Origin: a virus
Reading direction: 5' to 3' (one strand)
Length of the DNA: 64,000 bases
Virus record (IMG/VR): IMGVR_UViG_3300012979_000038
Span: 1 to 64,000 of that record
Positions 18,205-63,616 of the stretch are shown here, piece by piece; the first letter of the stretch is position 1; each line of letters starts with the position of its first letter. The notes beneath the pieces were generated by a model. It did no database searches, was not told where the DNA came from, and saw only the letters and a list, made by a program, of their open reading frames with translations. A program made the position numbers and the translations under genes.

Positions 18205-18552
18205 TTACCACATATCATCTTCATCAACAATTGCATTTTCTTGCTGATATTCATCAGATAGTTCGTGGTTTTCTAATTCTTGAGGATTTATATAGTATTG
18301 TTTAATATGATATGTATTCATATCAAGAAGTATCTTATTACACATATCAGCAGTCTTTAAACAGTTATCTCTAAGTTGTTGAAAATACTCCATATCATAT
18401 TTATATTGTAAAGTATAAACTTCATATAAATCTGATTCTCTGTTCTTCATATTAGAAGGATTAATAATTCTGTTATAAAGAATACAAATATCATTAAGAT
18501 AATTCTTTAAACGTTTAACTATTGAAAAATTTATAATGTCTTTATATTTCAT
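18205..18552 (-). CDS. hypothetical protein
   Basis: 115-aa ORF with a class B motif 15 nt upstream. Confidence 0.4.
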   Translation of the reverse strand: MKYKDIINFSIVKRLKNYLNDICILYNRIINPSNMKNRESDLYEVYTLQYKYDMEYFQQLRDNCLKTADMCNKILLDMNTYHIKQYYINPQELENHELSDEYQQENAIVDEDDMW

Positions 18553-19236: not shown

Positions 19237-22200
19237 TTAGATTTCAATAAATGGTAAACTATTAAATGGTGTTTGATAAATTGCTTTAGTTGAGAATGAT
19301 ATTGCTAAAATTTCTGAGTTGTTAATTGTTAGAGCTACGTTTTCTCCATCAACTGCAGATTTTAGTGGAGCGAATGCTACAGGAGCAATAATACCTCCTA
19401 CAGTCAAATCTTCTTTTTGTTTAACATTTAATAGTGATGCAGTTAAAATGTAATTATTAACATTTGCAAGCATTTCATTGATTGATTGAATGATTGTTCC
19501 TTCTGGATCTTCACCTCTAAGTAATGCTACTGTATCTTTAATACTTTCAAGACCTTCAAGTAATAACAAGTATTCTTCTTTTGAACCAACGAAACATTTA
19601 AGAATTGAATTGATTCCTTCTACTTTAAATAAGTTTCTAAAGTATGGGATTGCCATTCTTAATGTACCAGAACCTGCGAGTGCTGGCCATTCTTTTTCTG
19701 CTAAACCATCGATGTCATTGAATGACCAGTTAGAAGGTTCGCCATTTGCGTTGTTTTTGTTATTATTTCTATTCCAGAATTCTGTTATCCATTCGTTACA
19801 GATTGCATTAGATAAGAATTTACCTGAAATCCAAGATTTTGTCAAGCATTCAGATTCTCCAGATGATTCAACGTTATAAGAACTAGCATATTTTGGATTA
19901 CCTGATGAAACTGAAACTTTATTTATTTCATCCAAATAATCTTTCAAACCTGAGCTAGCACCATAGTACATCTTTTTAATGTTAGCCAAGTTGTTATTAG
20001 CAGTATTCCAACCGTTGCAGAAATCATTAAGTAATTCCCAATCTTCTGTAGTTAAATCAGAACTTTCTACGTTAGGTAAGAAGCAATAATCATTTGTTCT
20101 TACATAATCTAAAGGAATTGCTATGTAATTAGGTTTAATAATTAAACCAGATTTTTGAATAGCTGCATGTTGTTCATTAATTGTAGCATCTGATGATTCA
20201 TATCCAATTACTTCTTTACCACCATTGCCAGTGAATTGTGCAATTGGTAAATGATTTTTTGGAATTGATGGTGAAACATAAAGAACACCAATTAATTTAC
20301 TTGAATCACCCATCTTATCAATAGCATCTAAATTGTAAATTAGACCATAGTTATCAATGAAATATGTTCCAGGATTACATTCTTTAGGACTTCCGTATGA
20401 TGCCAATGAAGAAACTGCTGTAAATTGAACGTCTTTTGTTACATTAATAACATCTGTTCCAACTTCGTATCTTGCTGCACAATGTAAAATAATAGATTGT
20501 TCTAAGTCAATTGTGCTTTCTCCAATATGAGGAATTACAATTCTTACTCTAGCATCTTGCCAATTATCATTATTAACATATTCTACAGAGAAACCTGATA
20601 TAGGAGCATTAGCTACTGTTGTAAATGTATTATCTGTAAAGTATTCAGGTACACAAGTGAATGTACATGGATAAGAAACATCTTCAGCAACAGATTGAGC
20701 AGTTAATGATACTTTGTATTCAATTACTTTTGAATCACCAGCTTCTGCAGCAAGTTTAGTTGGCATCTTAGATTCAATATTTTCATCTTTATCAACTGAA
20801 AGAATATTGATAACTTCAGGATAAACGATTTGAGAATCAATTGTACAATCTTTTATGAAATCATGAACACCATTTCCATTTTCTAATGTTGCATCACCAA
20901 GGTGTTTAATAGTTAATGTAAATTCATCTTCATCATTGAATGATAAGTATGTTTTACCAGATTTATTTGATCTAACTTTAACTACCATAGATAATGGATT
21001 GTTTTTATCGATTTCGATAGATGTTCTATTGTTAACATTTAAGTCATAATTACCAATAACTGATGATTCTACTGGAATATTATAGTAATATTCTCCCCAT
21101 ACTTCATAGTATTGAGTGTTATATGGTCTTACTGTGTAATTAAATGTTTTATCTGCTTCATTCAATAAGATTGTTTTATCTTCAACAACATTACCTTCAG
21201 CATCTAACAAATCAAATTCATTAGCGTAAATAGGATTTACAATGAATGTTACTTGTTTATTGATTGGACAACCTACACCCATCTTATTATCATATTCTGT
21301 ATCAAATAATACATAAATATTAGCAGTAATTGTTACTGTTTGAGGAATAAATGATGGAGTCAATGTGAAAGAACATTGTGTTAAATCTTTATTTACTACA
21401 GTTGAAACTTTTAGAGATGCGGAATCTGCTGGATCAAGAGTTACTCTAAACGTTTTAATAGGAACGTTAATAGTATTATTTGGTAATAATTCTATTGAGA
21501 ATTTATGATCTTTGTTATCTTCTAAAGAAACTGTATCAGATTCTAATGTTCCAATATGTTCATTATCACAAACTAATTTGAAATCTGTTACAACATGAAC
21601 TTCTTTTAATGTAATATAAATAGCGTTATCAGCATCTGTATCACCATTAATTACAGGATATAAAACGAAGATTTGTTGTCTATTACGTGTTGAGTTACCA
21701 TTGAATAATGATTTAAATGTACAAGAAGATGTATTAGAATCATATGTCAATTGTAAGCAAGGAACAGCAGGACCAGGGTTACCGGTTGCGTTATTAATAT
21801 TATGTGTTCCATTTACATAATTTAATTTAACAGGATTTCCACCATTTGCGGGAATGTACCAAGCTTCATACCACATTGTTTCACCTTCGTTTACAGGGAA
21901 CTTAGTACATTTGAAAGTATATTCAGTTTCATGAATACCTTCGTACCAACCTTCCGTACACATTGCTGGCATATGTTGTGGTTTGTTGTCTATATCGTCA
22001 TTCCATTCCATTGAAGATGACCAGAACATACCTTCATCAGCACTAAATCTTAATGCAGAACCAGTAGAGAATACGTTTGCACCATATTTTTCGACGATAG
22101 CATCGTATTGTTCTTTAGTTAATTGTCTATCTTCAATTGAACTAATTAATGATAATGTACCTGTGAAATTTAATAAGTTGAATTTATCAACTACATTCAT

Positions 22201-25200
22201 TACGAAATCAACAGGAACATTTTCACAAGTAATATTTTCTAATGTTAAGTTGCAAGATTTGTGTGGAACATTTGCTTCTGTAAGAGCTGCGTCCCAATCA
22301 TTAACAAACTTAACAATATCAATACCAGTTACATTTCTTAGAACTACATTCTTAAGAGCTGCATCTGGAGTATATTTAAATACTTCAGCAGTTTGTTCAG
22401 CTGCAGGAGTAAATGTAACGTTTCTTAATTCGATATCAGAAATACGGTTTACTGGTAATGAAACTTCGTTTAAGATAACACCTTCAGCTGGTTTAAATGT
22501 TGTAATTGAAGAACCAATTGCACGATAAACGTGTAAGCTTGCTAAGTTGTTAATCTTGAAATCACCTAAGTGATATTCTTCAGAATCATTAAAACAGTTA
22601 CGTATATCAACTTCCTCAAGAGTATTAAGGTCGTTCATATTACTTAATAATGCTACGTTACATCTTGTTGGACCAAGAATTTCTAATGATAAACCATCTG
22701 GAGCGTTTACTGCTTGTGGAGCATCGTAATATTCTCCAGCATTAATTGTTATTTCATTACCACCAACTGTCATAACTATTGCATTTTCAGTTTTGTTAGT
22801 ATAACGATAAACGTCTGAAGTTCTGAATTCGTCAGAGATACCGAATAACAATTTTGTCATCATTGTACCTTTTGATTTAATCCAGTTATTAGCAATATTA
22901 CCAATAAATTCTAGTTTACCGAATGAGTGACCAGCTTCAACAGCTTTTCTAAAGTCAAGAACTTTAATCTTATCAACACCCATTATAGAGAATGGAGAAG
23001 AAATACCGTTCCATGTTGAGTTTGTTGTCCATTCCCATGTACTATCTATTTCCATTTCTTTAGCCCAATGTTCAGGTACTGCACCATCTAAGTCGGAGTT
23101 AGTTAAACCGAATACATTTTGACGAGCTGCTGTAATAGAGAATATGTCTGTATAGATAGAAGCATTTTCATTCTTAATACCCATATAGAACTTAATAGTA
23201 TTTTGAGAATATTCTCCAGAGAACCATTTAGAATCGTATAAGTTGAAACGGTTAGTTACCCACCATGTACGGTGTTGTGTTCTAGAACCATGGATAAAGT
23301 TCAAATAACCTGCACCAGATGGTAAATATTTAATTGTTTCTTGAACGTTATACATTCTTTCTGGCCACCAAGCTGCTTGTTTGTTGTTATACATATCTAA
23401 CAATGCTTTTGAAGATAGTACACCAGAGTTATACATCGCTGTATCAAGTTGTTTTACTTTATTCATAAAGTCAGCGTCATTTTCTAACAAGTTCCAAAGA
23501 ACTGAAGTAGGACCTGCGTAAGCGAATTGACCTTTTGAATAATCGTAAGTATTTCTATCTACTGTCCAGTGGAATACGATGTGACCATCATTACGAACAC
23601 CAAGAGTTGTATCGTTATCATAGTTGATATAATAGTAGTGTAGTCCGTCTTCTGTTGTTAACATTGAGTTCTTAACAACTTGGTCAATACCAGCGAATCT
23701 CATCAAGTAGATATAGTATGCTGCCAATTTCCAAACATCGAAGTAATCATATTTCTTTTCAGAGAAATATTCCATATATGTTCTACCGGCGAAAGATTTA
23801 CCATCTTTATCAACTTCATAAGCATCTCTATCAACAGAACCAACGTATTGTTTTTGTTGACCGTAGTTATCAGTATAATTATACTTGTTACCACCAGCTG
23901 CTTCTAAGTAAACAGATACATAATAATCTTCTTCGAATGGTGAACCAGCGATTTTATCACCATAATTAACTTGTTCGCCATCACCTACTCTTTCATCATC
24001 GAATGCAATATCTTCTACGAATGTACCGTAAGTTGCATCGAATGAAGCTACTCTTCCTTTATAAATGTGGTTTTCGATTGTTTTTGTTGAAACTGTCTTA
24101 GATACATTTTCATAATCGATATTTGTTAACATTTTATAAACTGGAGCATTGGCTCTCAAGTCATCTGAATCTTTATATTCTAAGTTATTATAAACTTTAT
24201 TACCAGCTTCTTCTAATTGTCTTTGATCTAGTACGAATACTAAAAGACCATCTTCAACAGCTTTGTCATATTCAGCTTCTGGAATTTCTACGTATGGAGA
24301 AAGTGTATAACCATCCAATCCATCAACTAAATAATCAACGCCTGGTTTACAGAAGTGAACGAATCTCCACATTGACTCAATATTATGAGTGTGTGATACA
24401 AGATATTCATCACCATCAGGACCTTCAATTTCAACGTCTGGCCAACGTGGTTCATAATCTGACATTACGAAACGTGTACCCATGAAAGTATTTTCTTCTT
24501 CACCAGGTGCAGCATGAACGTCAGTAATTAAGTTAACACCTTGTCCAAATAATGAACCGTTGTTAGATGCTTCCCAACATTCTACCTTTTCTGCGCTAAA
24601 TATTTTATTACCATTTTCATCATAAATATCTTCGAAACCGAATAGAGGAGTAGAACCTTTATCTGTCATGATGTTGAATTGACCTACGAATTCAGCATTA
24701 CCATATTTGCGGAAGCCGTTTTCATCATATTGAACATTACCAGCTTCGTCTCTCACTAATGGACAAGCAAAAATAACGATTGGTTTACCATCACAAGATG
24801 TACGAATATCGATACCATCTGCAAGTTCACCCATACGTTGTTGAGCTAATGTTCTACATAGATAACCAGTTTTACCTGAATCATCAGTACCTTGAACCAT
24901 CTTCATTGCATTACCCCATAATCTACCAGCACCAGCATTATGCGTCATAGAAGATTCAGCGAAGTCAGTTTTTAATGTCCATCTGTTTGTCCAACCTGAT
25001 CCTTCATATTGTTTCCAACAAGCTTGATCTACATAATATGTTTTATCTTCCTTAAGTGCATTTTTACCTTTTAGTTTCTTAAATTCTGGAACATCATATT
25101 CAACACCAGTTACAGGGTTTTGAATTTTTGAATATCCATCAATTGAATAAAGAGTAGCACCTGAATAACGGAATTGTTTTACTGTTAACCAATCACGTAA

Positions 25201-27804
25201 TGGTTGATACATAGGAACATAATATTCATTAGTTGAACCATCACCATAAGAGCAAGGATAGAAATCACCTGTTGCTGATTTATAGTAAAGTAAATTACCT
25301 CTACTTTCTAGAACTTCAGCTTCTTGATGGTTATATAATTTATGATATTTATCTTCACAAGTTTTCTTATTACATTGGAATTGACCAAGTTTAGAATAGT
25401 CATTTAATTCACCATGTGTAAATTCACCTGCACGATAGAATTCTGTCCAGTATTTAGCAGAACCGTCTAATGTTTTACCATCATTAGTTTTACCGAAGTA
25501 TAAACGGAAGTTTTTCTTTGGATAGAACATTGATGATGTACCTTGACAAGATACCCAAGCACCTCTTGCATAGAAATCTAAGTTAGGATCTGTTGGATCA
25601 TAGAATTCTACGTCAAATTCAGCGTTATTACTCTTGTTTGTAGCAGTATTAAGAATGTTAACATCACCATACATAACCATTGTAGGAATAGTATTCTTAA
25701 CAATATCTAGAGAAATACTATTTGTACCTTCTACATAAATATTATTTCTATCATACATTTCCAATAGGTTATCTGATTCTGCAATGAAGTTTGTTAATTC
25801 ATCATCTAATGATAATGCTTTATTATAAACACGGATTGAACGAATCTTAACGCCAGCTTTACCGTTTGGATCACCAATAACGATACCAGGATTTTCAGGA
25901 TTATTCCATTTAATAGAACCACCGAAAGTAGTTGCTCTATCCAAAATACCATTCATGATAATGAATGTTTTATTAGCATATAAGTCAACCGTTTGGTCGT
26001 AATTTTCTTTATAGTTACCAACGATAAATGCAAGTTTCAATCTTTCATTATCTTTAAAGTTACCAGTTACTACACCAGATGGAGACATATCACCAACTGA
26101 ACAACCACAAGCTGAAACTTCAATATGTGATCTGTTAGATTTATCTCTTACTGATAAAATAACTGCGTTTTCATCTTGAACATTAAATGTTTCGAAATCA
26201 ACTTCAAATGTTAAACCTGAATTTGTATAGTTATCGAATACATTAAATGGAATAAATGCAGTAGCACCACTATTCAATACCAAAGCTTTTCCATCCCAAC
26301 CAGATGTATCATTCCAAAGTACGTTGTTAAATTGAACATTAACATTACGATAATTCCATGTTGCAGGATTTGGTTCTGAGTTACTTCTGTTTTGAGCTTC
26401 AAGATTCAATACTAAAGATTCTTTAGTTACTGCAATTTGCGCAGCAGATTTAGCAACTTCTACAACAATATGCATAGAATCCAAAGGATTACCATTTGTA
26501 TCTTTACTTAATGTAGTAATATTGATATCGATATTACCATAAGTTAAGAATACATATTCGAATAGTTGTTCTTCACCAGATGAAATAGAACGCATCATAG
26601 AAGCAACATTTTCTGTTGTTTCACCTTCAGTTTTTGTTAATGCAAATTCCAAAGTTGTTGCAGCACCTGATGTACTAAACAAACCATAATTAAATGATGT
26701 AGAAGAGTATTGTTGTGTTTTAAATGAAATTGTATCTTCTGGATTAAATAATGCACCTGAACCTAAATCTTGAGAATACAAGATATAAGTCATATTCATT
26801 GGTGTATTTTTATCAACGATAACAAAGTCATAATATTTTGTCATTGAATAAAGACGAGAACCATCTTTATTTTCTACATACATTCTAAATTGGATTGTGT
26901 TTTTACCCAAATTGAATATAGGATTAAGTTCACCTAAGTCGTTGGTTAGATAAATAGACATGTTTGAACTATATTCTGGGTTTTTAGAAGCCATATAACC
27001 ATCAGTTGCTGTAGTTGATAAAGCTCCGTATTCTTCTGGAACCCAAGATTGGTTCAATGGTTTACCATTTACGTACCATTCCATGTATTTTTCACCTTGA
27101 CCACTAATAGAGTAAGGAATTGTAAAGTAGTTGTCATCTAAACCTAATGCGCTATCAAATTCAACTCCCTTCTTATTATCAAATGAAGATTCCAAAAGAA
27201 GTTCAACAACTGTATAAACAAAGTTTAATGTTGTTGTAGCTTGAGTAGATACACCAGTAAGAGTTACTGTGATGTTGTTTGTACCAACAGTCAAGTAATT
27301 ATCAATATTGATGTATTTTGGAATACCGTCTTGATAATTGTCGAAGTCAACAGGGAAGTTTTGAATAACTTGTGTAATTGTACCACCATTATTGAATACG
27401 ATACGTGCTTGTACTGCTTCAGTAATAGGGTTTTGACCACTATCCTTAACAATATAACGGAAGTAAAGTTCTTGACCTTTTTCTGAAGAAAGTATTGTTA
27501 CCATTTGACGAGATGTTTCATCTACACTAATAGATGCAGGAGCAGGAGCATCGAAAGTTGCTAAAAGCAAACCAGCATGTTCACCTGTTGTGTCATTAGC
27601 ATATTTGTTATAATCATCTTCATCAGCAAATACATAATACTTCAACGCAGTACGGTCATAGTGTAAATAACCAAACTTTTTTGCCAAAGTGTCTTTAATG
27701 AACTTTTGAACGAACTGACCTGATACCGCAGCACCACCGGTTGAGTTATCACCACCCCAGTCAACGGTTTTGTCAATCTCTTGTTCCCAAAGTTTTTCTG
27801 CCAT
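19237..27804 (-). CDS. giant virion structural protein (2855 aa), fibre/receptor-binding-like
   Basis: Uninterrupted 8.5-kb ORF in beta-rich N/T/Y/G composition. It leads a co-directional fibre gene cluster. Confidence 0.6.
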   Translation of the reverse strand: MAEKLWEQEIDKTVDWGGDNSTGGAAVSGQFVQKFIKDTLAKKFGYLHYDRTALKYYVFADEDDYNKYANDTTGEHAGLLLATFDAPAPASISVDETSRQMVTILSSEKGQELYFRYIVKDSGQNPITEAVQARIVFNNGGTITQVIQNFPVDFDNYQDGIPKYINIDNYLTVGTNNITVTLTGVSTQATTTLNFVYTVVELLLESSFDNKKGVEFDSALGLDDNYFTIPYSISGQGEKYMEWYVNGKPLNQSWVPEEYGALSTTATDGYMASKNPEYSSNMSIYLTNDLGELNPIFNLGKNTIQFRMYVENKDGSRLYSMTKYYDFVIVDKNTPMNMTYILYSQDLGSGALFNPEDTISFKTQQYSSTSFNYGLFSTSGAATTLEFALTKTEGETTENVASMMRSISSGEEQLFEYVFLTYGNIDINITTLSKDTNGNPLDSMHIVVEVAKSAAQIAVTKESLVLNLEAQNRSNSEPNPATWNYRNVNVQFNNVLWNDTSGWDGKALVLNSGATAFIPFNVFDNYTNSGLTFEVDFETFNVQDENAVILSVRDKSNRSHIEVSACGCSVGDMSPSGVVTGNFKDNERLKLAFIVGNYKENYDQTVDLYANKTFIIMNGILDRATTFGGSIKWNNPENPGIVIGDPNGKAGVKIRSIRVYNKALSLDDELTNFIAESDNLLEMYDRNNIYVEGTNSISLDIVKNTIPTMVMYGDVNILNTATNKSNNAEFDVEFYDPTDPNLDFYARGAWVSCQGTSSMFYPKKNFRLYFGKTNDGKTLDGSAKYWTEFYRAGEFTHGELNDYSKLGQFQCNKKTCEDKYHKLYNHQEAEVLESRGNLLYYKSATGDFYPCSYGDGSTNEYYVPMYQPLRDWLTVKQFRYSGATLYSIDGYSKIQNPVTGVEYDVPEFKKLKGKNALKEDKTYYVDQACWKQYEGSGWTNRWTLKTDFAESSMTHNAGAGRLWGNAMKMVQGTDDSGKTGYLCRTLAQQRMGELADGIDIRTSCDGKPIVIFACPLVRDEAGNVQYDENGFRKYGNAEFVGQFNIMTDKGSTPLFGFEDIYDENGNKIFSAEKVECWEASNNGSLFGQGVNLITDVHAAPGEEENTFMGTRFVMSDYEPRWPDVEIEGPDGDEYLVSHTHNIESMWRFVHFCKPGVDYLVDGLDGYTLSPYVEIPEAEYDKAVEDGLLVFVLDQRQLEEAGNKVYNNLEYKDSDDLRANAPVYKMLTNIDYENVSKTVSTKTIENHIYKGRVASFDATYGTFVEDIAFDDERVGDGEQVNYGDKIAGSPFEEDYYVSVYLEAAGGNKYNYTDNYGQQKQYVGSVDRDAYEVDKDGKSFAGRTYMEYFSEKKYDYFDVWKLAAYYIYLMRFAGIDQVVKNSMLTTEDGLHYYYINYDNDTTLGVRNDGHIVFHWTVDRNTYDYSKGQFAYAGPTSVLWNLLENDADFMNKVKQLDTAMYNSGVLSSKALLDMYNNKQAAWWPERMYNVQETIKYLPSGAGYLNFIHGSRTQHRTWWVTNRFNLYDSKWFSGEYSQNTIKFYMGIKNENASIYTDIFSITAARQNVFGLTNSDLDGAVPEHWAKEMEIDSTWEWTTNSTWNGISSPFSIMGVDKIKVLDFRKAVEAGHSFGKLEFIGNIANNWIKSKGTMMTKLLFGISDEFRTSDVYRYTNKTENAIVMTVGGNEITINAGEYYDAPQAVNAPDGLSLEILGPTRCNVALLSNMNDLNTLEEVDIRNCFNDSEEYHLGDFKINNLASLHVYRAIGSSITTFKPAEGVILNEVSLPVNRISDIELRNVTFTPAAEQTAEVFKYTPDAALKNVVLRNVTGIDIVKFVNDWDAALTEANVPHKSCNLTLENITCENVPVDFVMNVVDKFNLLNFTGTLSLISSIEDRQLTKEQYDAIVEKYGANVFSTGSALRFSADEGMFWSSSMEWNDDIDNKPQHMPAMCTEGWYEGIHETEYTFKCTKFPVNEGETMWYEAWYIPANGGNPVKLNYVNGTHNINNATGNPGPAVPCLQLTYDSNTSSCTFKSLFNGNSTRNRQQIFVLYPVINGDTDADNAIYITLKEVHVVTDFKLVCDNEHIGTLESDTVSLEDNKDHKFSIELLPNNTINVPIKTFRVTLDPADSASLKVSTVVNKDLTQCSFTLTPSFIPQTVTITANIYVLFDTEYDNKMGVGCPINKQVTFIVNPIYANEFDLLDAEGNVVEDKTILLNEADKTFNYTVRPYNTQYYEVWGEYYYNIPVESSVIGNYDLNVNNRTSIEIDKNNPLSMVVKVRSNKSGKTYLSFNDEDEFTLTIKHLGDATLENGNGVHDFIKDCTIDSQIVYPEVINILSVDKDENIESKMPTKLAAEAGDSKVIEYKVSLTAQSVAEDVSYPCTFTCVPEYFTDNTFTTVANAPISGFSVEYVNNDNWQDARVRIVIPHIGESTIDLEQSIILHCAARYEVGTDVINVTKDVQFTAVSSLASYGSPKECNPGTYFIDNYGLIYNLDAIDKMGDSSKLIGVLYVSPSIPKNHLPIAQFTGNGGKEVIGYESSDATINEQHAAIQKSGLIIKPNYIAIPLDYVRTNDYCFLPNVESSDLTTEDWELLNDFCNGWNTANNNLANIKKMYYGASSGLKDYLDEINKVSVSSGNPKYASSYNVESSGESECLTKSWISGKFLSNAICNEWITEFWNRNNNKNNANGEPSNWSFNDIDGLAEKEWPALAGSGTLRMAIPYFRNLFKVEGINSILKCFVGSKEEYLLLLEGLESIKDTVALLRGEDPEGTIIQSINEMLANVNNYILTASLLNVKQKEDLTVGGIIAPVAFAPLKSAVDGENVALTINNSEILAISFSTKAIYQTPFNSLPFIEI

Positions 27805-34584: not shown

Positions 34585-34632
34585 TTTGAAATCATTTTTT
34601 TAGCTTACTATATTACTTTATTAGTTATAAAA
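34585..34632 (+). promoter_or_regulatory. class A promoter-like motif upstream of the sigma factor gene
   Basis: TTTGAAATCATTTTTTTAGCTTACTATATTACTTTATTAGTTATAAAA. Confidence 0.5.
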
Positions 34633-34635
34633 CTC

Positions 34636-34666
34636 GTCTGGGCAGTTTGCGCCCTTTGGCATAGAC
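34636..34666 (+). promoter_or_regulatory. GC-rich hairpin in the sigma-factor leader
   Basis: GTCTGGGCAGTTTGCGCCCTTTGGCATAGAC in a ~30% GC genome, between the promoter motif and the ATG at 34696. Confidence 0.4.
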
Positions 34667-34695
34667 CATAAATATATGAGTTGTAAAAAACTAAA

Positions 34696-35901
34696 ATGGC
34701 AAGAAAAAGTGTAACTTTAAGTAAAACATCAGAAAAGAAACTAGTATCGTTTTTAAAACACAATCAAGAATATATAACTGAAGAATTTGAAACAAAATTT
34801 AGGGAACAAGTTATATATGACATTAAAAATATTAGAGAATGCTCCGAAAAGAAAATCGTTGATTTTTATTGTGAAGTAGCAAAATCAATGTTAGAATCTG
34901 GAGAAGTCAATTTCAATGACGAATTCTTTAATACTCTCAAAAATAAAGTTAGATCTAAATTATCTCAAGTTTATACATCAGGTAAAACATTCGATAATAA
35001 TATCGACATTTATTTTAATGAGGTAAAATCTATCTATATTAAAAATCCTCAAAACGAATCAGATGGACTTGAGTTTATTCCAGAAAACAGAGACATTTTC
35101 ATTAAAAACAATTTGAAGTTAGTTATTGAATGTGCTAAACGTTATCGTGATCTCGGTTTACCATTCGAAGATTTAATTCAAGTTGGAAATTATGGTTTAT
35201 TAATTGCATTTGATAAATTTGATACTGATAGAGCAAATTTACGTATTGCGATTATGAACGATATTAAAAATTCAGCTACAGAAACATTTACTAAATTAGA
35301 AGCTGAAGAAATCATTCGCAAAAATTTCACTTATTCTAAAAACTTAGAACAAACAATAAATTCTATTCCAGAAAATGGATTTGAATCAAAGGAAAAATTT
35401 ATTGAGTGGTCTAAGGTAAATATCAAAACAGCAGTATTCGCTTCAGTGGCTTTCCAATGGATTAGAGCAAATATCATTATTGAGCTCAATAAATATGGAA
35501 AGATCTTAAAAATTCCAAATTCAGTTAAAAATGATTTAGGTGCAGCGTCAATCATAAGATTGGATTCGTTGAACCCATATACTGATGATTGTTATCATGA
35601 TAATCAAATTTCAGATTACATTAATAATGAATTTAAAACTGAATATGAATTATATGATGAACAAGAACAAGAAGAATTATACAAAGAAACTGTAGAAGAT
35701 CTTTTATCTATTTTAAACAATCAAGAACGTCGTATTATTAAAAAGAAGTTTGGAATAGATTATCCGTATGAAATGAGTCCTAATGATATTGCAGAGAACG
35801 AAGGATTACCTGTTAATAAAGTAAAACAGATAATTAATTCATCAATGAAAAAATTATCTAACGAAGCTAATAGAAGCGGAAAGAAATCTATCTTTTCGTA
35901 A
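34696..35901 (+). CDS. sigma-70 family RNA polymerase sigma factor
   Basis: Region 2.2 DLIQVGNYGLLIAFDKFD, region 2.4 FQWIRANII, region 4 HTH ERRIIKKKFGIDYPYEMSPNDIAENEGLPVNKVKQI. Confidence 0.8.
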   Translation: MARKSVTLSKTSEKKLVSFLKHNQEYITEEFETKFREQVIYDIKNIRECSEKKIVDFYCEVAKSMLESGEVNFNDEFFNTLKNKVRSKLSQVYTSGKTFDNNIDIYFNEVKSIYIKNPQNESDGLEFIPENRDIFIKNNLKLVIECAKRYRDLGLPFEDLIQVGNYGLLIAFDKFDTDRANLRIAIMNDIKNSATETFTKLEAEEIIRKNFTYSKNLEQTINSIPENGFESKEKFIEWSKVNIKTAVFASVAFQWIRANIIIELNKYGKILKIPNSVKNDLGAASIIRLDSLNPYTDDCYHDNQISDYINNEFKTEYELYDEQEQEELYKETVEDLLSILNNQERRIIKKKFGIDYPYEMSPNDIAENEGLPVNKVKQIINSSMKKLSNEANRSGKKSIFS

Positions 35902-53160: not shown

Positions 53161-54114
53161 ATGAAGTCATTAAATCAATACATAAACGAGAAACTTGTTT
53201 TGAAGTCTAATAGCAAAATTAGAAAACATCAAGAATATAATTATCATCCTAAAACAAATGAGGAATTAAGAACGTTAGTTAATGAACTCATTGAAGAACG
53301 TGGTATTGAAGCTGATTTAAACGACATTGATACATCAAAAATTGATGATATGTCACATGTATTTGAAAACAAAAAATTTGATGGAGATATTTCAGACTGG
53401 GACGTTTCTAATGTAAGATATATGGGACATATGTTTTTATATAATTTTGATTTTACCGGAAAAAACACAGATTTTAGTAACTGGGATGTATCAAACGTTT
53501 ATCATGCCGATGGAATGTTTGCTGGATGTCAAAAGTTTGAAGGTAAAGGATTGGAAAACTGGAAATTGAAATCGTTAGGAGTAGCAAAAGAAATGTTCGC
53601 CAATTGTCATGAGTTAAATTTCGACATAACAAATTGGGATATTTCTAATATAGAATACTTTGAATCGATGTTTATAAATTGTAAAAAATTCAATCAAGAT
53701 TTATCTAACTGGAAATTCAATCATAATGTTAGAAATTTAACTGGTTTATTTATGGGGTGTGAAAGTTTCGAAGGAAAGGGATTGGAAAATTGGGATGTTA
53801 GTAAAATAACAAATATGAGAAGTATGTTTGCTGGCTGTGCAAAATTTAATGCCGATATAACTAAATGGGATGTTTATTCAGTTATTGGCATGTGTAATAT
53901 GTTTCATGGATGTAAAGAATTTAATCAGGATTTATCTAATTGGAATGTAAAAAATCTTATGGATATTACTGAAATGTTTAGGGATTCTGGTATGACATAT
54001 AATTTAGCAAAATGGGCACCTAAGCTTCACAATAAATGTAAAATAAAAAATGCATTAACTAATACACCGGTAACTAAATCAAAACGTCAACCTTTCTGGT
54101 ACTTTAGAAAATAA
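53161..54114 (+). CDS. DUF285-repeat protein, paralog 1, with CTS-like N-terminus
   Basis: Tandem ~22-aa repeats F.GDIS.WDVSNV..M..MF typical of DUF285 (Mycoplasma-type repeat). N-terminus MKSLNQYINEKLVLKSNSKIRK shared with 4 paralogs. Confidence 0.7.
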   Translation: MKSLNQYINEKLVLKSNSKIRKHQEYNYHPKTNEELRTLVNELIEERGIEADLNDIDTSKIDDMSHVFENKKFDGDISDWDVSNVRYMGHMFLYNFDFTGKNTDFSNWDVSNVYHADGMFAGCQKFEGKGLENWKLKSLGVAKEMFANCHELNFDITNWDISNIEYFESMFINCKKFNQDLSNWKFNHNVRNLTGLFMGCESFEGKGLENWDVSKITNMRSMFAGCAKFNADITKWDVYSVIGMCNMFHGCKEFNQDLSNWNVKNLMDITEMFRDSGMTYNLAKWAPKLHNKCKIKNALTNTPVTKSKRQPFWYFRK

Positions 54115-56639: not shown

Positions 56640-57632
56640 ATGAAAAGTTTAACCCAACATATAACAGAGAAACTTGTATTAACTAATAAATCAAAAATAC
56701 GAGGAAAACATACATATAATTATTTTCCAAAAGATTTGAATGAATTACGTGACATCATGTATAAATTAATTGATGAACGAGGAAATAAAGCAAACTTGAA
56801 CGATATTGATGTTTCTAATATAACAACATTAGAAGGATTATTTAGAGAGTTTGATGAGTTTAACGGTGATATTTCGCAATGGGACGTTAGTAATGTTTTG
56901 ATTATGACAGATACATTTGCTGTATCTGAATTTACTGGTGATATTTCTCAGTGGGATGTTTCTAGTGTTACTAATATGCAACGCATGTTTCATGATTCAG
57001 AATTTGATGGAGATATTTCAGATTGGAACGTTCGTAATGTAGAGAATATGATTGATATGTTTAATGGCAGCAAATTTACTGGTGATTTAAATAAATGGGA
57101 TGTTAGTAAAGTAAAAGATATGTCAGGTATGTTTGGTGAATCTATATTTGAAGGTAATATTTCTGATTGGAACACGAAAGCAGTTGAGCGTATGGATTGC
57201 ATGTTTGAAGATAATTTGGTATGGAATGGCGATATATCTAAATGGGATGTTTCTAATGTTATTTCAATGATACGTATGTTTCATTATTCAGGATTTACCG
57301 GTAAACATGGTTCATTAAAAAATTGGAATGTTGAAAAGGTAATAGATGCACAATTAATGTTTGCCGAAACTGAGTTTAACGGTGATCTATCTGGTTGGAA
57401 ACTTAAAAGCGCAAAAACTATTAGATCCATGTTTTTACGTTCATCTTTTAATAATGACAGTATTAAAGATTGGAATAAATATTTAAACAGTGTAAGAAAT
57501 ATGAATTTCATGTTTTCTGAAACCAAATTTTCACAAGATTTATCTCATTGGACTATTGATAAACGATGCGACTTTGTTGGAATGTTTGATGATTGTCCTA
57601 TAAAAGAAGAATATAAACCAAAATTTAAATAA
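56640..57632 (+). CDS. DUF285-repeat protein, paralog 2
   Basis: N-terminus MKSLTQHITEKLVLTNKSKIRG; repeats GDISQWDVSNV; C-terminus CPIKEEYKPKFK. Confidence 0.7.
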   Translation: MKSLTQHITEKLVLTNKSKIRGKHTYNYFPKDLNELRDIMYKLIDERGNKANLNDIDVSNITTLEGLFREFDEFNGDISQWDVSNVLIMTDTFAVSEFTGDISQWDVSSVTNMQRMFHDSEFDGDISDWNVRNVENMIDMFNGSKFTGDLNKWDVSKVKDMSGMFGESIFEGNISDWNTKAVERMDCMFEDNLVWNGDISKWDVSNVISMIRMFHYSGFTGKHGSLKNWNVEKVIDAQLMFAETEFNGDLSGWKLKSAKTIRSMFLRSSFNNDSIKDWNKYLNSVRNMNFMFSETKFSQDLSHWTIDKRCDFVGMFDDCPIKEEYKPKFK

Positions 57633-57633
57633 T

Positions 57634-58332
57634 ATGAAAAGTCTAACACAACATATAACAGAAAAACTTGTACTAAACTCCAATTCAAAGATTAGAAAAA
57701 ACAAAGAATATAATTATCATCCTAAAACAAGAGCTGAACTAAAAAAACTAATAGAACAACTTATTAAAGAACGTGGTTATGAAGCAGATTTAAACGATAT
57801 CGATACATCTTTAATAACAGATATGTCAAGTTTATTTTTTGGATCGTATTTTAATGGAAATATATCTGAATGGGATGTAAGTAATGTTGATAATATGGAT
57901 GGAATGTTCAATGGATGTAAATTTACAGGCGAAAATGGAGATATATCTGGATGGAATGTAAATAATGTAGAAGATATGAGTTTTATGTTTAGTGATTCTG
58001 AATTTAACGGTGATATATCTGATTGGAATGTATGTAAAGTACAGAACATGACATGTATGTTTTTAAACTCAAAATTTAATGGAGATTTATCTAAATGGAA
58101 TGTTGGCAATGTAAAATATATGACAAGTATGTTTAAAGAATCTGAATTTACTGGAGAAAATGGAGATATATCTAATTGGGATTTACACAGTATATCTATG
58201 ATTGATGAGATTTTTAAACAAACAAAATTCAATAAAGATATATCTAAATGGAATATTAATAAAAATTGCTCAACAGTAGATATGTTTAAGGAATGTCCTA
58301 TAAAAGAAGAATATAAACCTAAGCTTAAATGA
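57634..58332 (+). CDS. DUF285-repeat protein, paralog 3
   Basis: N-terminus MKSLTQHITEKLVLNSNSKIRK; C-terminus CPIKEEYKPKLK. Confidence 0.7.
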   Translation: MKSLTQHITEKLVLNSNSKIRKNKEYNYHPKTRAELKKLIEQLIKERGYEADLNDIDTSLITDMSSLFFGSYFNGNISEWDVSNVDNMDGMFNGCKFTGENGDISGWNVNNVEDMSFMFSDSEFNGDISDWNVCKVQNMTCMFLNSKFNGDLSKWNVGNVKYMTSMFKESEFTGENGDISNWDLHSISMIDEIFKQTKFNKDISKWNINKNCSTVDMFKECPIKEEYKPKLK

Positions 58333-58334
58333 TT

Positions 58335-59156
58335 ATGAAAACATTAAACCAATATATAGAAGAGAAACTTGTTTTGAATTCTAATTCAAAGATTAGGAAA
58401 CAACATTATAATTATCATCCCAAAACAAGAGATGAGCTAAAAGAAATAGTTAAAAAACTTATTGAAGAAAGAGGTAATGAAGCTAACTTAAACGATATTA
58501 ACACATCTTCAATAACAGATATGTCAAATATGTTTGAAAATATAAAATTTGTAGGTGATATTTCAGGCTGGGATGTTAGCAACGTTACTAATATGAGTTG
58601 GATGTTTTATAAATCTGAATTCAATGGAGATATATCTAAATGGGATGTTAGTAATATTGAAGTCATGTATTGTATGTTTGCACGTTCAAAGTTTAACGGC
58701 GACATATCTGATTGGGATGTAAGAAAAGTTAAAGATGTATCAGGGATGTTTGAAGAATCTAAATTTAATATGGATATATCTAAATGGGATGTTAGAAACG
58801 TAGAAAACATGTCACATATGTTTCATAAATCTGAATTTAATGGAGATATATCGCAATGGGATGTTAGTAGTGTTACTAAAATGACTGCTATGTTTAATAC
58901 GTCTTCTTTTAACGGAGATATTTCTAAATGGAAAGTTGACTCAGTTAAAGATATGGGATATATGTTTTATGAATCTAAATTCAATGGAGATATATCCAAA
59001 TGGAATGTGGATAAAGTAGAAGATATGAGGGCAATGTTTAAAAAATCAAAATTTAATAAAGATATATCTGGTTGGAATATTTTGATGATGTGTGATATTG
59101 CGAATATGTTTAAACAATGTCCTATAAAAGAAGAATATAAACCTAAGTTTAAATAA
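58335..59156 (+). CDS. DUF285-repeat protein, paralog 4
   Basis: MKTLNQYIEEKLVLNSNSKIRK taken as the start; the ORF opens 2 codons earlier with ATGA overlap. C-terminus CPIKEEYKPKFK. Confidence 0.7.
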   Translation: MKTLNQYIEEKLVLNSNSKIRKQHYNYHPKTRDELKEIVKKLIEERGNEANLNDINTSSITDMSNMFENIKFVGDISGWDVSNVTNMSWMFYKSEFNGDISKWDVSNIEVMYCMFARSKFNGDISDWDVRKVKDVSGMFEESKFNMDISKWDVRNVENMSHMFHKSEFNGDISQWDVSSVTKMTAMFNTSSFNGDISKWKVDSVKDMGYMFYESKFNGDISKWNVDKVEDMRAMFKKSKFNKDISGWNILMMCDIANMFKQCPIKEEYKPKFK

Positions 59157-59157
59157 T

Positions 59158-60201
59158 ATGAAAACATTAAAGCAATATATAGTAGAGAAACTCGTTTTAA
59201 CTAACAATACAAAGATTAGAAAACGAGAATATAATTATCATCCAGAAACGAAAGATGAGTTAAAAAAATTAGTTAAAAAACTCATAGAAGAACGAGGAGA
59301 TAATGCAGATTTAAATGATATTGACGTTTCAGAAATAACTGATATGTCTAGCTTATTTAGTTTTTCTCATTTTAACGGAGATATATCTGGTTGGGACGTT
59401 AGTAATGTTAAAGATATGTCCCATATGTTTTCAAGTAGTTATAAGTTTAACGGTGATATATCAAATTGGGATGTTGGTAATGTAACTAATATGAGTTGGA
59501 TGTTTAATTTTTCTAAATTTGATGGTGATATATCTAGATGGGATGTTAGTAATGTTACTAACATGGACGGTATGTTTAATGATTCACATTTTATGGGAGA
59601 TATATCTAAATGGGACACAAGTAAATGCAAATCTATGATTATTATGTTTGAATCTTCAAGTTTCGATGGAGATATTTCTAAGTGGAATGTAAGTTCTGTT
59701 GAAAATATGGGCTCTATGTTTAAGAAGTCACAATTCAATGGAGACATATCTGAATGGGATGTAAGTTCAGTCAAAAATATGGGTTGGATGTTTGAAGAAT
59801 CAAAATTTAATGGTGATTTATCTAAATGGAATGTGAGTTCTGTAGAAAAAATGACAAATATGTTCCATAGTTCTAAATTCAATGGAGATATATCAAAATG
59901 GAATGTCGGTAAAGTTACTGACATGTCCGGTATGTTTACTAAAACTAATTTTAATGGAGATATAAGTAAATGGGATGTTAGTAATGTTACTGACATGCTA
60001 TGTATGTTTGGTTGGTCTAAATTCAATGGAGATATAAGTAAATGGAATGTTAGAAATGTTGAAAATATGGAATCAATGTTTAACAAAACTGAATTCAACA
60101 GAGATATATCTAAATGGGACGTAACATCTGTTAAAACATTTAATAATATATTCTATGAATGTCCAATAAAAGAAGAATATAAACCAAAGTTTAAAAAATA
60201 A
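59158..60201 (+). CDS. DUF285-repeat protein, paralog 5 (longest repeat array)
   Basis: N-terminus MKTLKQYIVEKLVLTNNTKIRK; about 12 repeats; C-terminus CPIKEEYKPKFKK. Confidence 0.7.
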   Translation: MKTLKQYIVEKLVLTNNTKIRKREYNYHPETKDELKKLVKKLIEERGDNADLNDIDVSEITDMSSLFSFSHFNGDISGWDVSNVKDMSHMFSSSYKFNGDISNWDVGNVTNMSWMFNFSKFDGDISRWDVSNVTNMDGMFNDSHFMGDISKWDTSKCKSMIIMFESSSFDGDISKWNVSSVENMGSMFKKSQFNGDISEWDVSSVKNMGWMFEESKFNGDLSKWNVSSVEKMTNMFHSSKFNGDISKWNVGKVTDMSGMFTKTNFNGDISKWDVSNVTDMLCMFGWSKFNGDISKWNVRNVENMESMFNKTEFNRDISKWDVTSVKTFNNIFYECPIKEEYKPKFKK

Positions 60202-60204
60202 AAA

Positions 60205-60240
60205 AGAGTTACAGAAAATCTGTAACTCTTTGTTTTATAA
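60205..60240. terminator. bidirectional terminator
   Basis: AGAGTTACAGAAAATCTGTAACTCT followed by TTGTTTTAT. Confidence 0.6.
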
Positions 60241-60257
60241 TATCTCTATTCTAAAAA

Positions 60258-61355
60258 TTAGAATGGAAGATCTGTATCATCGTCATCTGCACCAAAACTA
60301 TCGAAAGTTGCAGTTGAACCACCATGAACTTGAGTAGGTTCTGGAGCAGTAGTTTGCTCTGTCAAAGCCGCTGGTGCAGAATTAACTGTTGCAGGATTAT
60401 TACCGTTAAGAACTACTTCAATCCAACGATTTACACGTTCTTTCAATTCGTCGTTCCACTCCTTGTAACCAAGGTGCTCAGTAAGATTTGGACATACAGT
60501 CTTAATGTTATCCAAAACTCGTTTGTAGATTTTCTTAAGAGCTGCTGTGTTTGGATCTGCATTTACTTCTTCCAATAATGCTGTACGAGTTTCAGCATCC
60601 TTAGATTTCCAAACCTTATTCATCTTTGTTACATAAGTATCAAGTACTTCAGTTTCGTCATCATTCAACATTGATGAACCATCTGGGTTTACACAAGATA
60701 CTACTTCATCGCTAAACTCACCAACATACTTGGTTTCACGAGTATAACGTTCTTCACCTGGTTTACCTGGACCTGGTTGAACCTCAAGTTCAATTGCTCT
60801 ACCGAACAAGAAATCCATAACTGGAATTGATGCTTTCTTTGCATCAGATGGATTCATCTTTGCATTGATAATATCCCAAATTGACTTAGGAAGCTTCCAG
60901 AAAAGATACTTACCTACCAAATCAGGTTTGTTCTCATCTTCCAATACTTGGATAGTTACATAACGAGTAAATCGCTTGTCGAACATTTGGTTACCACCCT
61001 TGTCTGCACCTGCTTGTTGTTTCCACAATGCTGAACCCTCATCTGCATAACGGCATTTCTTCCATGCCTTAAAGATAGGACAATTGGTGTCATTTACAGT
61101 AAGTGAAGATACTGCTTGGAACCAACCCTTCTCATCTTGCATAGAATAAGCTTGTTGCTCGATAACTGAGTTCTTTAGATCAAATGGATTGTAAATTACT
61201 TTAATGGTAGCACGATATACACCATCTTCTGCAACTGAATCTGCAGGACGTGGACGATAGATTAGTGGGTCCGCGTTAGAAGTTTTTTGTTCTGTTTGGT
61301 TAAAAACTGTTAATTGTGAGGGATCAAAGCCCAATACGTCATTTTCTGTCATCAT
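60258..61355 (-). CDS. single-stranded DNA-binding protein (T4 gp32-like)
   Basis: KYLFWKLPKSIWDIINAKM versus T4 gp32 KVFKWLMPKPLWDKINAM. Acidic C-terminal tail FGADDDDTDLPF as in gp32. Confidence 0.65.
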   Translation of the reverse strand: MMTENDVLGFDPSQLTVFNQTEQKTSNADPLIYRPRPADSVAEDGVYRATIKVIYNPFDLKNSVIEQQAYSMQDEKGWFQAVSSLTVNDTNCPIFKAWKKCRYADEGSALWKQQAGADKGGNQMFDKRFTRYVTIQVLEDENKPDLVGKYLFWKLPKSIWDIINAKMNPSDAKKASIPVMDFLFGRAIELEVQPGPGKPGEERYTRETKYVGEFSDEVVSCVNPDGSSMLNDDETEVLDTYVTKMNKVWKSKDAETRTALLEEVNADPNTAALKKIYKRVLDNIKTVCPNLTEHLGYKEWNDELKERVNRWIEVVLNGNNPATVNSAPAALTEQTTAPEPTQVHGGSTATFDSFGADDDDTDLPF

Positions 61356-61471
61356 AATTTCAAATGTTTGTTAAATAAATTTTTAATTAAAATGTTAAAC
61401 TAAATTGTTAAACTAACTTGTTAAATATTTGATAAATTAATATAGTCTTGTTAAAAGACATATTTCAAATC
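61356..61471 (-). promoter_or_regulatory. SSB leader with five TGTTAAA repeats (mRNA sense UUUAACA) and a 5' hairpin: candidate translational operator
   Basis: TGTTAAA at about 61369, 61393, 61406, 61419 and 61449. Hairpin GTCTT-GTTAAA-AGAC at 61445..61459. Confidence 0.45.
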
Positions 61472-61765
61472 TTATGAAAAATATTTTGCTAAAAATTCAA
61501 AATAGTCTTTTAACATTTTTGTTCGTTTACTTTTCTTAGTCTTTGCCAAATTTTGCATTTTATCGTTTTCGCATCTTTCCAAAAGTTGTTTACCGATATT
61601 GTCCCAGCAACCCATAAAAATTGCTTGTAATTCTACAAATATATCCTCAACTTCCTTTTCAGTTTTATAATCAAGATTTTCTGCATTTTCTTTACACCAA
61701 TTCTTAACTAATTCTGAAACTGAGTTTTTAGATTCTAACAATATTTTATCCTTAAGTGTTTTCAT
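61472..61765 (-). CDS. small protein, N-terminus MKTLKDKILLES (CTS-like)
   Basis: 97-aa ORF. Confidence 0.4.
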   Translation of the reverse strand: MKTLKDKILLESKNSVSELVKNWCKENAENLDYKTEKEVEDIFVELQAIFMGCWDNIGKQLLERCENDKMQNLAKTKKSKRTKMLKDYFEFLAKYFS

Positions 61766-61767
61766 TT

Positions 61768-62106
61768 TTACATAATTCCAAGTGTATTTGGTACAGCTCC
61801 TGCTATAGGATTACCTAAATTTGTTCCGGGTGGTATAACGGCTTGTTGAGCTACCGGCGAACCTGTAGTTAAAATCACCCCGTAAATACAACCGCATTTT
61901 ATGTAATAATCTATTGCAGACGATAATTGTTCAGCCCATGATTCAGAAACTAAATCGCAAAATGTTTGACCAAATTCTTTAGCCTTTTCTTTTCCAATTT
62001 CAGATGAACCAGGAAACAATCCTAAAAGTGATTGTTCAAATGCATCAGGAATAGTTTGATCAAAACAATCTTTTATTTTTTGTTTAAGACTTGCTTGATT
62101 TAACAT
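61768..62106 (-). CDS. hypothetical protein
   Basis: 112-aa ORF. Confidence 0.4.
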   Translation of the reverse strand: MLNQASLKQKIKDCFDQTIPDAFEQSLLGLFPGSSEIGKEKAKEFGQTFCDLVSESWAEQLSSAIDYYIKCGCIYGVILTTGSPVAQQAVIPPGTNLGNPIAGAVPNTLGIM

Positions 62107-62111
62107 TTACA

Positions 62112-62504
62112 TTATTTGTTGTTATACAACCATTTTGTATACTCAACAAGAGATATTTTTATATTATCACGTTGTTTTTGGCTCAAATATGAAGTATCAT
62201 ATCTTTTAAGATATTCATTAACAATAGTTTCAACTTTATCTTCTAAAGATACTTCTTCATCATTTTGTTTATTATTTGCTAATGCTTCTGCTTCATCTAA
62301 TTGAGCTTTCACTGTTGCCAAATCAGCACCAATTAATGAATTCATCCAAATAGACAAAAATGGATTATCTGATGTCATTTCTTCAAAGTTATTAAGTAAT
62401 TCTTTACATTTACGAATTGCTTCTGGATTTGTTAAATCCAATTCTTTCATATTACCATTTTCATCCATGAAATATGATAAATTCTCTAGCATGTTATTAA
62501 TCAT
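62112..62504 (-). CDS. hypothetical protein
   Basis: 130-aa ORF with a class B motif 18 nt upstream. Confidence 0.4.
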   Translation of the reverse strand: MINNMLENLSYFMDENGNMKELDLTNPEAIRKCKELLNNFEEMTSDNPFLSIWMNSLIGADLATVKAQLDEAEALANNKQNDEEVSLEDKVETIVNEYLKRYDTSYLSQKQRDNIKISLVEYTKWLYNNK

Positions 62505-62521
62505 TTCTCTATATATAAAAG

Positions 62522-62539
62522 TTTATTTATATAAAAATA
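62522..62539 (-). promoter_or_regulatory. class B motif (exact)
   Basis: TTTATTTATATAAAAATA on the plus strand. Confidence 0.5.
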
Positions 62540-62555
62540 TTATTTTTCAGTTATT

Positions 62556-63230
62556 TTATTCAATTTTTGTAATATATTCTTCTGCTATATGTGCAAAAAC
62601 TGTTGGGTTTTCTACATAACTTGATACAGGTACATACTCCTTTTTATAGAATAAATTAACTTTAGAAGTATCTATCGTGTAGTTTTCAATGCATTCATAA
62701 ACTTCTTCTTCACCTTCAAACAATGTGTGAACCTTTTTGTATTCGTTTAGCTTTAACATTTTTGCTAGTCGTTGCCAAACCATCAAATCTTCAAAACTCA
62801 TACGAGATACATAAGAACCTTGTTGTTCGTCAGGGAAAAACATTCGAGAGAAATTCCAAACACCATTGTCATCTTTATATGCAACTACTTCTTTGTATTT
62901 CTTTAATTCTTCATAAGATATAATATTCTCTTGATTAATAAATTCGAAAAATACGTCAAGAGGATTAATATCTGTTGTATTTAAAGAAAAACCTGCAATA
63001 GTGAAGAAACTAAACTTCATTTGGTCATATATACATTGATTGATATCGCGAGCAGTGAACTCACAACGGTCAGGATCTAACTTCATACGTTCATATGAAT
63101 AACGAACAATATCTTCTGCATGTGAATGAGAAGCAATTGTATGACGTCCTATTGCATATCGATAAGACATCCAAATCAACGTTTCTTCATAAGAAGATAA
63201 CGGTTCTAATTTTTGTTGTTTTCTTGCCAT
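62556..63230 (-). CDS. hypothetical protein (replication-region gene)
   Basis: 224-aa ORF near the SSB gene. Confidence 0.4.
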   Translation of the reverse strand: MARKQQKLEPLSSYEETLIWMSYRYAIGRHTIASHSHAEDIVRYSYERMKLDPDRCEFTARDINQCIYDQMKFSFFTIAGFSLNTTDINPLDVFFEFINQENIISYEELKKYKEVVAYKDDNGVWNFSRMFFPDEQQGSYVSRMSFEDLMVWQRLAKMLKLNEYKKVHTLFEGEEEVYECIENYTIDTSKVNLFYKKEYVPVSSYVENPTVFAHIAEEYITKIE

Positions 63231-63616
63231 GTTGCTATATTTAATAAAGTTTTCATTTCATTAACTAATCTCATAGAATTTTCCAAAAAATCATTTACTG
63301 GAATAACTATAATTGTTTCCTTTTTATCAGTCGAATACGCATTAGAATAAACGGTTACATAAATATATGTGTCATTATAGCTTTCAGAAAAATTAATTCC
63401 GGATGCATCACCGTTATTGGTTATTTCACTAAAAAATGTCATGTCATCATATGCAATTGTTCCATTTCTATACTGGTATATTTGATAAAACAATGGTAGG
63501 TTTTCGGTTATACAATTATTTAAAAATGATAAAACAAATTCATGTATAGCCAAATCAATTTCACATTTAGTTTTCATAAATGCTTTAAACATATCCTTAT
63601 TGACTTTCGAAATCAT
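63206..63616 (-). CDS. hypothetical protein
   Basis: 136-aa ORF. Confidence 0.4.
   Translation of the reverse strand: MISKVNKDMFKAFMKTKCEIDLAIHEFVLSFLNNCITENLPLFYQIYQYRNGTIAYDDMTFFSEITNNGDASGINFSESYNDTYIYVTVYSNAYSTDKKETIIVIPVNDFLENSMRLVNEMKTLLNIATWQENNKN

Follow-up and report, generated by a model that had tools for sequence, protein, structure and literature searches.

[quoted passage not shown] The gene V protein of phages M13 and f1, another phage ssDNA-binding protein, represses translation of gene II mRNA via an unstructured leader. The T4 gene 32 operator has two parts, both of them required: a 5' pseudoknot of ∼28 nt and, 3' of it, a less structured stretch of more than 40 nt with UUAAA/UAAA repeats and the ribosome-binding site (PMC535899; PMC3014915). 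The RB69 gene 32 leader was found by chemical probing to be unstructured from -1 to -45 (PMC535899; PMC3014915). In phage RB49, the gene 32 leader has kept the repeats and the pseudoknot is absent (PMC535899). The operator of T4 gene 43 is a hairpin ∼40 nt 5' of the start codon, bound by the gene's own replication protein (PMC3014915). With the metrics used throughout this work, the T4 gene 32 leader (NC_000866) has UUAAA at -27, -22, and -17, an MFE of -1.4 and a z of +0.8 for -38 to +15, and a structured element that ends ∼40 nt upstream.

The window, by which we mean the whole 64-kb stretch of viral DNA that was analyzed (30% G+C overall), encodes at 60258..61355 (-) a 365-aa protein with its ATG at 61355. 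The first-pass annotation had called this gene a gp32-like SSB, and three lines of comparison back the call: the protein scores 28.8 bits against Pfam PF08804, just over the cut-off of 26.8; it matches PHROG 224 (1.4e-11); and the only significant PDB matches of the AlphaFold (AF2) model (pLDDT 77) are to gp32 of T4 and RB69, which take all six of the best places at E∼1e-10. The profile of the SSB family also matches 1gpc, the T4 gp32 core. Both tails are disordered in the AlphaFold model, the N-terminal one covering residues 1-27 and the acidic C-terminal one residues 326-362, with the ending ...DDDDTDLPF. We concluded that the window SSB is a genuine gp32 homologue. The start codon is backed by the N-terminus M(T/N)EN(D/E)ILGFD conserved among relatives. 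The conserved N-terminal peptide ENDILGFDP is acidic and unlike the basic cooperativity motif of T4, so that cooperative binding by this SSB cannot be assumed. A search of the GenBank phage collection gave no DNA match to the region and only two protein matches to the SSB (23% identity), on 735-kb uncultured phages. The SSB family itself is large (548 proteins at E ≤ 1e-10) and comes from rumen and gut metagenomes, on contigs that reach several hundred kb in length. About 100 SSB loci were taken from it, which gave 78 distinct leaders in ∼60 clusters.

The surroundings of the gene were also inspected. A bidirectional intrinsic terminator with a 13-bp stem and T-runs on both strands is located just 3' of the SSB stop codon (60203..60231). 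A terminator scan of the region detected none between the upstream genes and the SSB leader, so read-through mRNAs spanning the whole intergenic region are possible. Directly 5' of the SSB promoter, most relatives carry a conserved gene whose product ends in ...PNTLGI; in the window and its closest relatives an extra ORF of ∼97-101 aa lies between that gene and the SSB gene (window 61472-62106 (-)). Tandem genes for DUF285-type repeat proteins (FNGDISKWDVS repeats) are present in the window at 53161-54114 (+), 56640-60201 (+), and 19237-27804 (-), alongside a 2855-aa ORF, and DUF285 genes flank the SSB gene in the close relatives L098 and L102 as well.

The SSB ATG and the stop codon of ORF 61472-61765 enclose an intergenic region of 116 nt with 15% G+C (61356-61471). 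Its sense strand contains exactly five TTTAACA words, at 61369-75, 61393-99, 61406-12, 61419-25, and 61449-55; when the leader was shuffled 20,000 times with its dinucleotides preserved, no shuffle had five or more copies. The count of five TGTTAAA repeats in the first-pass annotation was therefore right; the spacing of 12-28 nt given with it was not, the actual start-to-start distances being 30, 13, 13, and 24 nt. Two related TTTGAAA words are also present. One is at 61463-69 and the other, at 61358..61364 (-), occupies -9 to -3, within the expected ribosome footprint. Nowhere else in the window, on either strand, do three or more TTTRAMA words of one strand fall within 95 nt. Over 61369-61425 (-), Tandem Repeats Finder detects an array with a period of 13 nt and 4.5 copies, which corresponds to TTTAACA copies 2-5; in the mRNA, three UUUAACA stand in tandem at the 13-nt period (61419-25, 61406-12, 61393-99) and one further copy follows (61369-75). 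Copy 1 (61449..61455 (-)) is placed differently: it lies in the promoter spacer, abuts the -10-like box, and is the homologue of TTTGACAAGT in the SSB promoters of relatives. Four of the five copies once assigned to the leader are thus inside the predicted monocistronic leader, and copy 1 is outside it. TTTAACA pairs elsewhere, at 30217/30229 and 36410/36422, both fall within coding sequence and were judged to be chance occurrences. We used the test for the specific word and set aside a generic statistic ("any 7-mer repeated ≥5 times"), which is uninformative because 5% of shuffles reach its threshold via homopolymer-like words.

Promoters of the sigma-ABfr type have a spacer of ∼19-21 nt between TTTG and the TAnnTT(TG) box. 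Bacteroidota promoters carry TTTG at -33 and TAnnTTTG at -7, and the modal Bacteroides 5' UTR is 23 nt (PMC7366714). A search of the window for the promoter-like motif TTTGA[AT]-N15-19-[ACT]TAT[AT]TT returned 13 sites vs 4.3 expected, 10 of which are intergenic and correctly oriented. At the SSB gene, the -33/-35-like hexamer TTTGAA (61464..61469 (-)) is part of this recurrent motif, and the -10/-7-like box CTATATT (61439..61445 (-)) is found 5' of the SSB gene in 62 of 78 relatives. An independent scan of 60100-63300 gave the same site as the best sigma-70-type match. The SSB site is a predicted promoter: TTTG-N19-TATATT occurs 10 times in the intergenic DNA of the window, while the SSB site has N21 and is without the 3' TG of the Bacteroidota consensus. 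From the position of the box, transcription would start near 61428-61434 and produce a leader of ∼75-83 nt. The predicted 5' leader (61356..61438 (-); 14% G+C) measures 83 nt from the -10-like box to the ATG, approximately three times the usual length, as the box ends 27-34 nt before the ATG in six other genes with the same promoter type. These shorter distances agree with the short 5' UTRs of Bacteroidota. A second promoter inside the leader was considered and rejected as the main reading: the tails of relatives have two TTTG ∼20 nt apart that lack the TAnn prefix, the window leader has TTTAACA, and a start there would give a nearly leaderless transcript.

Other observations were made on the upstream motifs of the window. 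The motif TTTGAAA-N16-CTATATT, often followed by N6-GTAATTAA, is found 27-34 nt 5' of start codons, with sites at 5317(+), 7672(+), 11564(+), 14264(+), 34585(+), 41320(-), 42824(-), 46850(-), and 56594(-). Its geometry resembles that of Bacteroidota -33/-7 promoters and thereby suggests a Bacteroidota host; phages of the SSB family probably infect Bacteroidota. A second recurrent upstream motif, TTATTTTTATATAAATA, is similar to the T4 late promoter TATAAATA and is often immediately preceded by a terminator-like hairpin. It lies upstream of the genes at 18552(-), 62504(-), 41259(-), 27804(-), 34499(-), 5259(-), 56640(+), and 53161(+). Many relatives have a copy just 5' of the SSB promoter, and two classes of promoter may thus drive SSB transcription. 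The phage-encoded sigma factor gene (PHROG 351; 34585-35901 (+)) has an unusually long leader of 81 nt after its -10-like box, which holds a G+C-rich hairpin and is possibly another regulated leader. For the DNA polymerase ORF (12335-13585 (+), 416 aa), B-family polymerase profiles align over their C-terminal half only (phrog_262 positions 499-846 of 856), which may reflect a split polymerase or a truncated annotation.

The 5' hairpin GUCUU-UUAACA-AGAC that had been proposed as part of the operator does exist as an inverted repeat (GTCTT-TTAAC-AAGAC, 61445..61459 (-), ∼-3.2 kcal/mol). However, it is situated wholly inside the promoter spacer, its last base being the first base of the -10-like box, and it is absent from the 80%, 70%, and 68% relatives (L097, L099, and L101). 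Being weak, unconserved, and in the promoter spacer, it is not a homologue of the family hairpin described below, and is probably incidental.

The leader itself is extremely A/U-rich and has been selected to lack secondary structure. The 104-nt leader sequence folds with an MFE of -5.3 vs -9.66 for shuffles (z +1.79), and 198 of 200 composition-matched shuffles are at least equally stable; for the segment -38 to +15 the MFE is -0.1 and z is +1.5. The leader ranks among the least-structured 3% of all 80-nt windows but is not unique in this respect, and "longest unstructured stretch" was therefore dropped as a criterion. No stable structure was detected 3' of the -10-like box. The covariance model R1 scored 15 bits (E 4.5) on the window leader and gave nothing significant in the window, and Rfam gave no match at E ≤ 10 in 61200-61650.

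Next, we compared the leaders of the closest relatives. Four contigs (L102, L103, L104, and L105) encode one SSB (P0001) that is 99% identical to the window SSB. The number of tandem 13-nt units is 2 in L102 and L105, 3 in the window, and 4 in L103; since it varies among near-identical strains, the exact number is not critical. L104 has the P0001 SSB but the short leader and the upstream gene end of the 80% relative L097, which points to recombination close to or at the start codon of the SSB gene. In the 80%, 70%, and 68% relatives there are 2-3 words, and every one of these leaders has TTTGAAA or TTTGACA at 3-11 nt 5' of the ATG. Variation in copy number (2, 3, and 4 with one 99%-identical SSB), in a window of 30% G+C, is what one would expect of a functionless A/T-rich minisatellite generated by replication slippage in a low-complexity spacer. 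We consider this highly improbable. Within the array units, differences number 0/28 in the 7-nt core vs 6/24 in the 6-nt spacers (p=0.007), that is, the core is invariant while the spacers diverge; the word cluster has no counterpart in the 64 kb, and five copies were reached in none of the 20,000 shuffles; and the same word class is enriched, in the sense orientation only, in ∼60 independent leader clusters.

The first-pass annotation had suggested that the leaders of gp32 homologues be compared, and the 78 leaders show enriched, sense-only, AUG-proximal words together with, in most relatives, a covarying hairpin. TTTRAMA words occur at 1.88 per 90 nt in the SSB leaders. The controls, 214 other ORFs from these loci and 75 other window genes, have 0.18 and 0.28 in their upstream regions, so that the SSB leaders are enriched 7-10 times. 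Within 18 nt of the start codon, 72% of SSB leaders have a TTTR[AT]MA word, vs 4% and 15% of controls. The family words number 147 in sense (6.5x the compositional expectation) and 21 in antisense (at expectation). Hairpin-less leaders carry more words than hairpin-bearing ones (2.71 vs 1.74, p=0.005, in lineages that are not independent). The architecture is kept down to 37% SSB identity (L016). The family tails, measured from -38 to +15, have a mean MFE of -1.41 and a mean z of +0.67, with 86% above 0, vs -2.77 and 0.09 for other window genes. The folding values of the T4 leader are practically the family means of these SSB leaders.

An unstructured leader with words next to the AUG might also be a translational enhancer, in which leader and words form a ribosome (S1/30S) loading platform for very high constitutive translation of the SSB, a protein required stoichiometrically, in a host without Shine-Dalgarno pairing and with no SSB feedback. 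This is in our estimate an unlikely explanation. It would account for the depletion of structure in the leader, and it agrees with the finding that no Shine-Dalgarno sequence is visible before the SSB gene or other window genes; Bacteroidota are known to rely on A-rich unstructured initiation regions (PMC7366714). On the other hand, such a leader or word cluster is seen at no other window gene, not even at the structural genes expected to be highly expressed, and the AUG-proximal word often places U/G at -16 to -9, where Bacteroidota favour A (PMC7366714). A covarying hairpin at a fixed distance would be unnecessary for simple enhancement. The two functions, enhancement and autoregulation, are compatible and not exclusive.

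Most relatives have, in addition to the words, a stable hairpin that ends 37-44 nt before the ATG. Hairpins with dG ≤ -5 that end 35-45 nt from the ATG were found in 46% of leaders vs 1.5% of shuffles. More than 30 different stem sequences are represented, and the loops differ in length and sequence. In an in-register alignment of 11 sequences, 96.5% of cells pair, slid controls reaching ≤45%; there are 21 double-change cells vs 5.8 in shuffles, and the covariation score was reached by none of 500. All eight hairpin pairs covary in 34 distinct model-aligned sequences (an alignment fitted to the model). Paired cells amounted to 96.5% and 94.3% in the covariation analyses. A covariance model of the hairpin and tail gave 42 matches in 286 kb of related loci, 41 of which end at the SSB start codon. 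The distance from promoter to ATG ranges from 44 to 133 nt (median 78) and that from hairpin to ATG is 37-44 nt, which indicates that the start codon, not the promoter, sets the position of the element. As judged by its covariation and gene specificity, we consider the hairpin-plus-tail a well-supported RNA motif; it matches no Rfam family.

Some variants and alternative readings of the hairpin region were noted. In L070, L080, L081, L087, L088, and L092, a two-level stem ∼40-75 nt 5' of the SSB ATG replaces the simple hairpin and sits at the same distance from the ATG; its outer part is GTTAT...ATAAC and its inner part covaries (CGACC/GGTTG, CGGTT/AACCG, CGGCCT/AGGCTG). L018, L023, L036, L039, L041, L043, L047, L051, L052, L056, and L028 share an invariant ATG at the 5' foot of the hairpin (alignment A3, columns 3-5), which probably results from conservation of the closing U-A and G-C pairs. 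A leader peptide starting from this ATG was rejected, as the upstream ORFs have 2-20 codons and inconsistent frames. The hairpin was also rejected as a terminator (it lies 3' of the -10-like box and is followed by AATTTG with no T-run), and a pseudoknot in the relatives was rejected as well, there being no excess of complementarity between loop and tail.

The position of the hairpin bears on a reading at the DNA level, in which the repeats are duplex sites for a transcription factor or a promoter-class determinant that, sitting on the promoter spacer and the early transcribed DNA, represses or times SSB transcription. The element being positioned by the ATG and not by the promoter speaks against it, and so do the compensatory changes in the adjoining hairpin, which point to an RNA-level constraint, the selective depletion of RNA structure, and the presence of one word nearly always within ∼18 nt of the AUG. 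No gene for a DNA-binding regulator was identified nearby; the phage does encode its own sigma factor, and direct-repeat arrays of variable copy number are typical of DNA operators. What keeps this reading alive is the SSB-specific word in the promoter spacer: the composite in which a word abuts the -10-like box is present at 14 of 42 SSB promoters vs 0 of 25 promoters of this class at other genes; within the window it occurs at the SSB gene only. A pure RNA model explains that word only if longer read-through transcripts matter. Taken together, we hold control at the DNA level to be quite unlikely. Co-variation of A/G between the promoter and leader copies was significant by Fisher's test, but it came from one lineage only and was not used.

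Hairpin and words could alternatively act on mRNA stability or processing. RNase E processing occurs upstream of T4 gene 32. The transcripts of T4 gene 32 are processed and unusually stable (PMC3014915), and by the same token the hairpin of the relatives and the A/U words might control the half-life of SSB mRNA as points of ribonuclease entry or protection. A/U-rich single-stranded RNA is a typical endonuclease substrate, and with no terminator 5' of the leader, longer transcripts that need processing are plausible. We nevertheless judge this explanation very unlikely: the relatives' hairpin lies 25-80 nt downstream of the predicted 5' end, its fixed distance from the AUG and the word beside the AUG suggest translation over decay, and the lineage of the window has no hairpin.

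Our preferred reading, by analogy with gene 32 of T4 and RB69, is that the window leader may be a hairpin-less, repeat-expanded variant of an SSB-specific translational operator, to which we give a probability of roughly one half. Transcription from TTTGAA...CTATATT would yield an mRNA with the ∼75-83 nt leader. Free SSB in excess of the available single-stranded DNA would coat the unstructured leader cooperatively and, by covering the ribosome-loading region, repress its own translation, as gp32 does on gene 32. In most relatives SSB binding would begin beside the conserved hairpin ∼40 nt 5' of the AUG; in the window lineage, where the hairpin is missing, extra words and length may stand in for it, as in RB49. 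The first-pass annotation had proposed a T4-like autoregulatory leader with a different repeat unit. The family words, the unstructured tail, and the hairpin geometry in relatives favour that proposal, but the window leader itself has no nucleation structure.

A broader version of the model seems to us doubtful. Under it, UUURAMA would be a sequence-specific RNA word able to replace the structured nucleation site in a deep gp32 branch, repression would compete with ribosome loading in the absence of Shine-Dalgarno pairing, and, through the word in the promoter spacer, SSB or a partner protein would recognize the gene as DNA, too. The result would be dual feedback, and autogenous control would extend across the gp32 family.

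We found no prior description of such a leader in the literature searched, and none in Rfam. The leader is conserved before the same gene in dozens of related rumen and gut jumbo phages, and the UUUAACA leader of the window is one version of it. Nature has provided a set of variants: leaders with and without the hairpin, arrays of 2, 3, or 4 units with one 99%-identical SSB, and a swapped leader. These variants make the roles of structure, words, and lattice length directly testable. The system would exemplify translational repression in a host that does not use Shine-Dalgarno pairing.

Among the described systems, M13/f1 gene V shares with this locus a phage ssDNA-binding protein and an unstructured leader; it differs in its unrelated fold, in having the mRNA of another gene as target, and in lacking a repeat array. 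[quoted passage not shown] The T4 polymerase, however, reads a specific loop (UAAC), whereas the loops here vary and the gene encodes an SSB. The RB49 gene 32 leader has A/U repeats without a 5' structured element, as do the window leader and its nearest relatives; the repeat word and the host translation signals are different. By this analogy RB49 is a precedent for the anatomy of the window leader, not for its function. In comparison with gene 32 of T4, T2, and RB69, the repeat is UUURAMA (UUUAACA with a 13-nt period in the window) instead of UUAAA with a 5-nt period, the structured element of the relatives is a plain hairpin and not a pseudoknot (the window leader has neither), and no Shine-Dalgarno sequence is present; the proteins share ∼18% identity, and the operator described here is a predicted one. 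The likenesses are in the layout: the leader of a gp32-family SSB gene directly 5' of the start codon, at least ∼40 nt of unstructured A/U-rich RNA (as computed here) running into the initiation region, reiterated short A/U words (4-5 copies of UUURAMA in the window leader), and, in most relatives of the window SSB, a structured element ∼40 nt 5' of the AUG. A distant gp32 branch (∼18% identity) carried by uncultured rumen and gut jumbo phages thus keeps the leader geometry of the T4 type.
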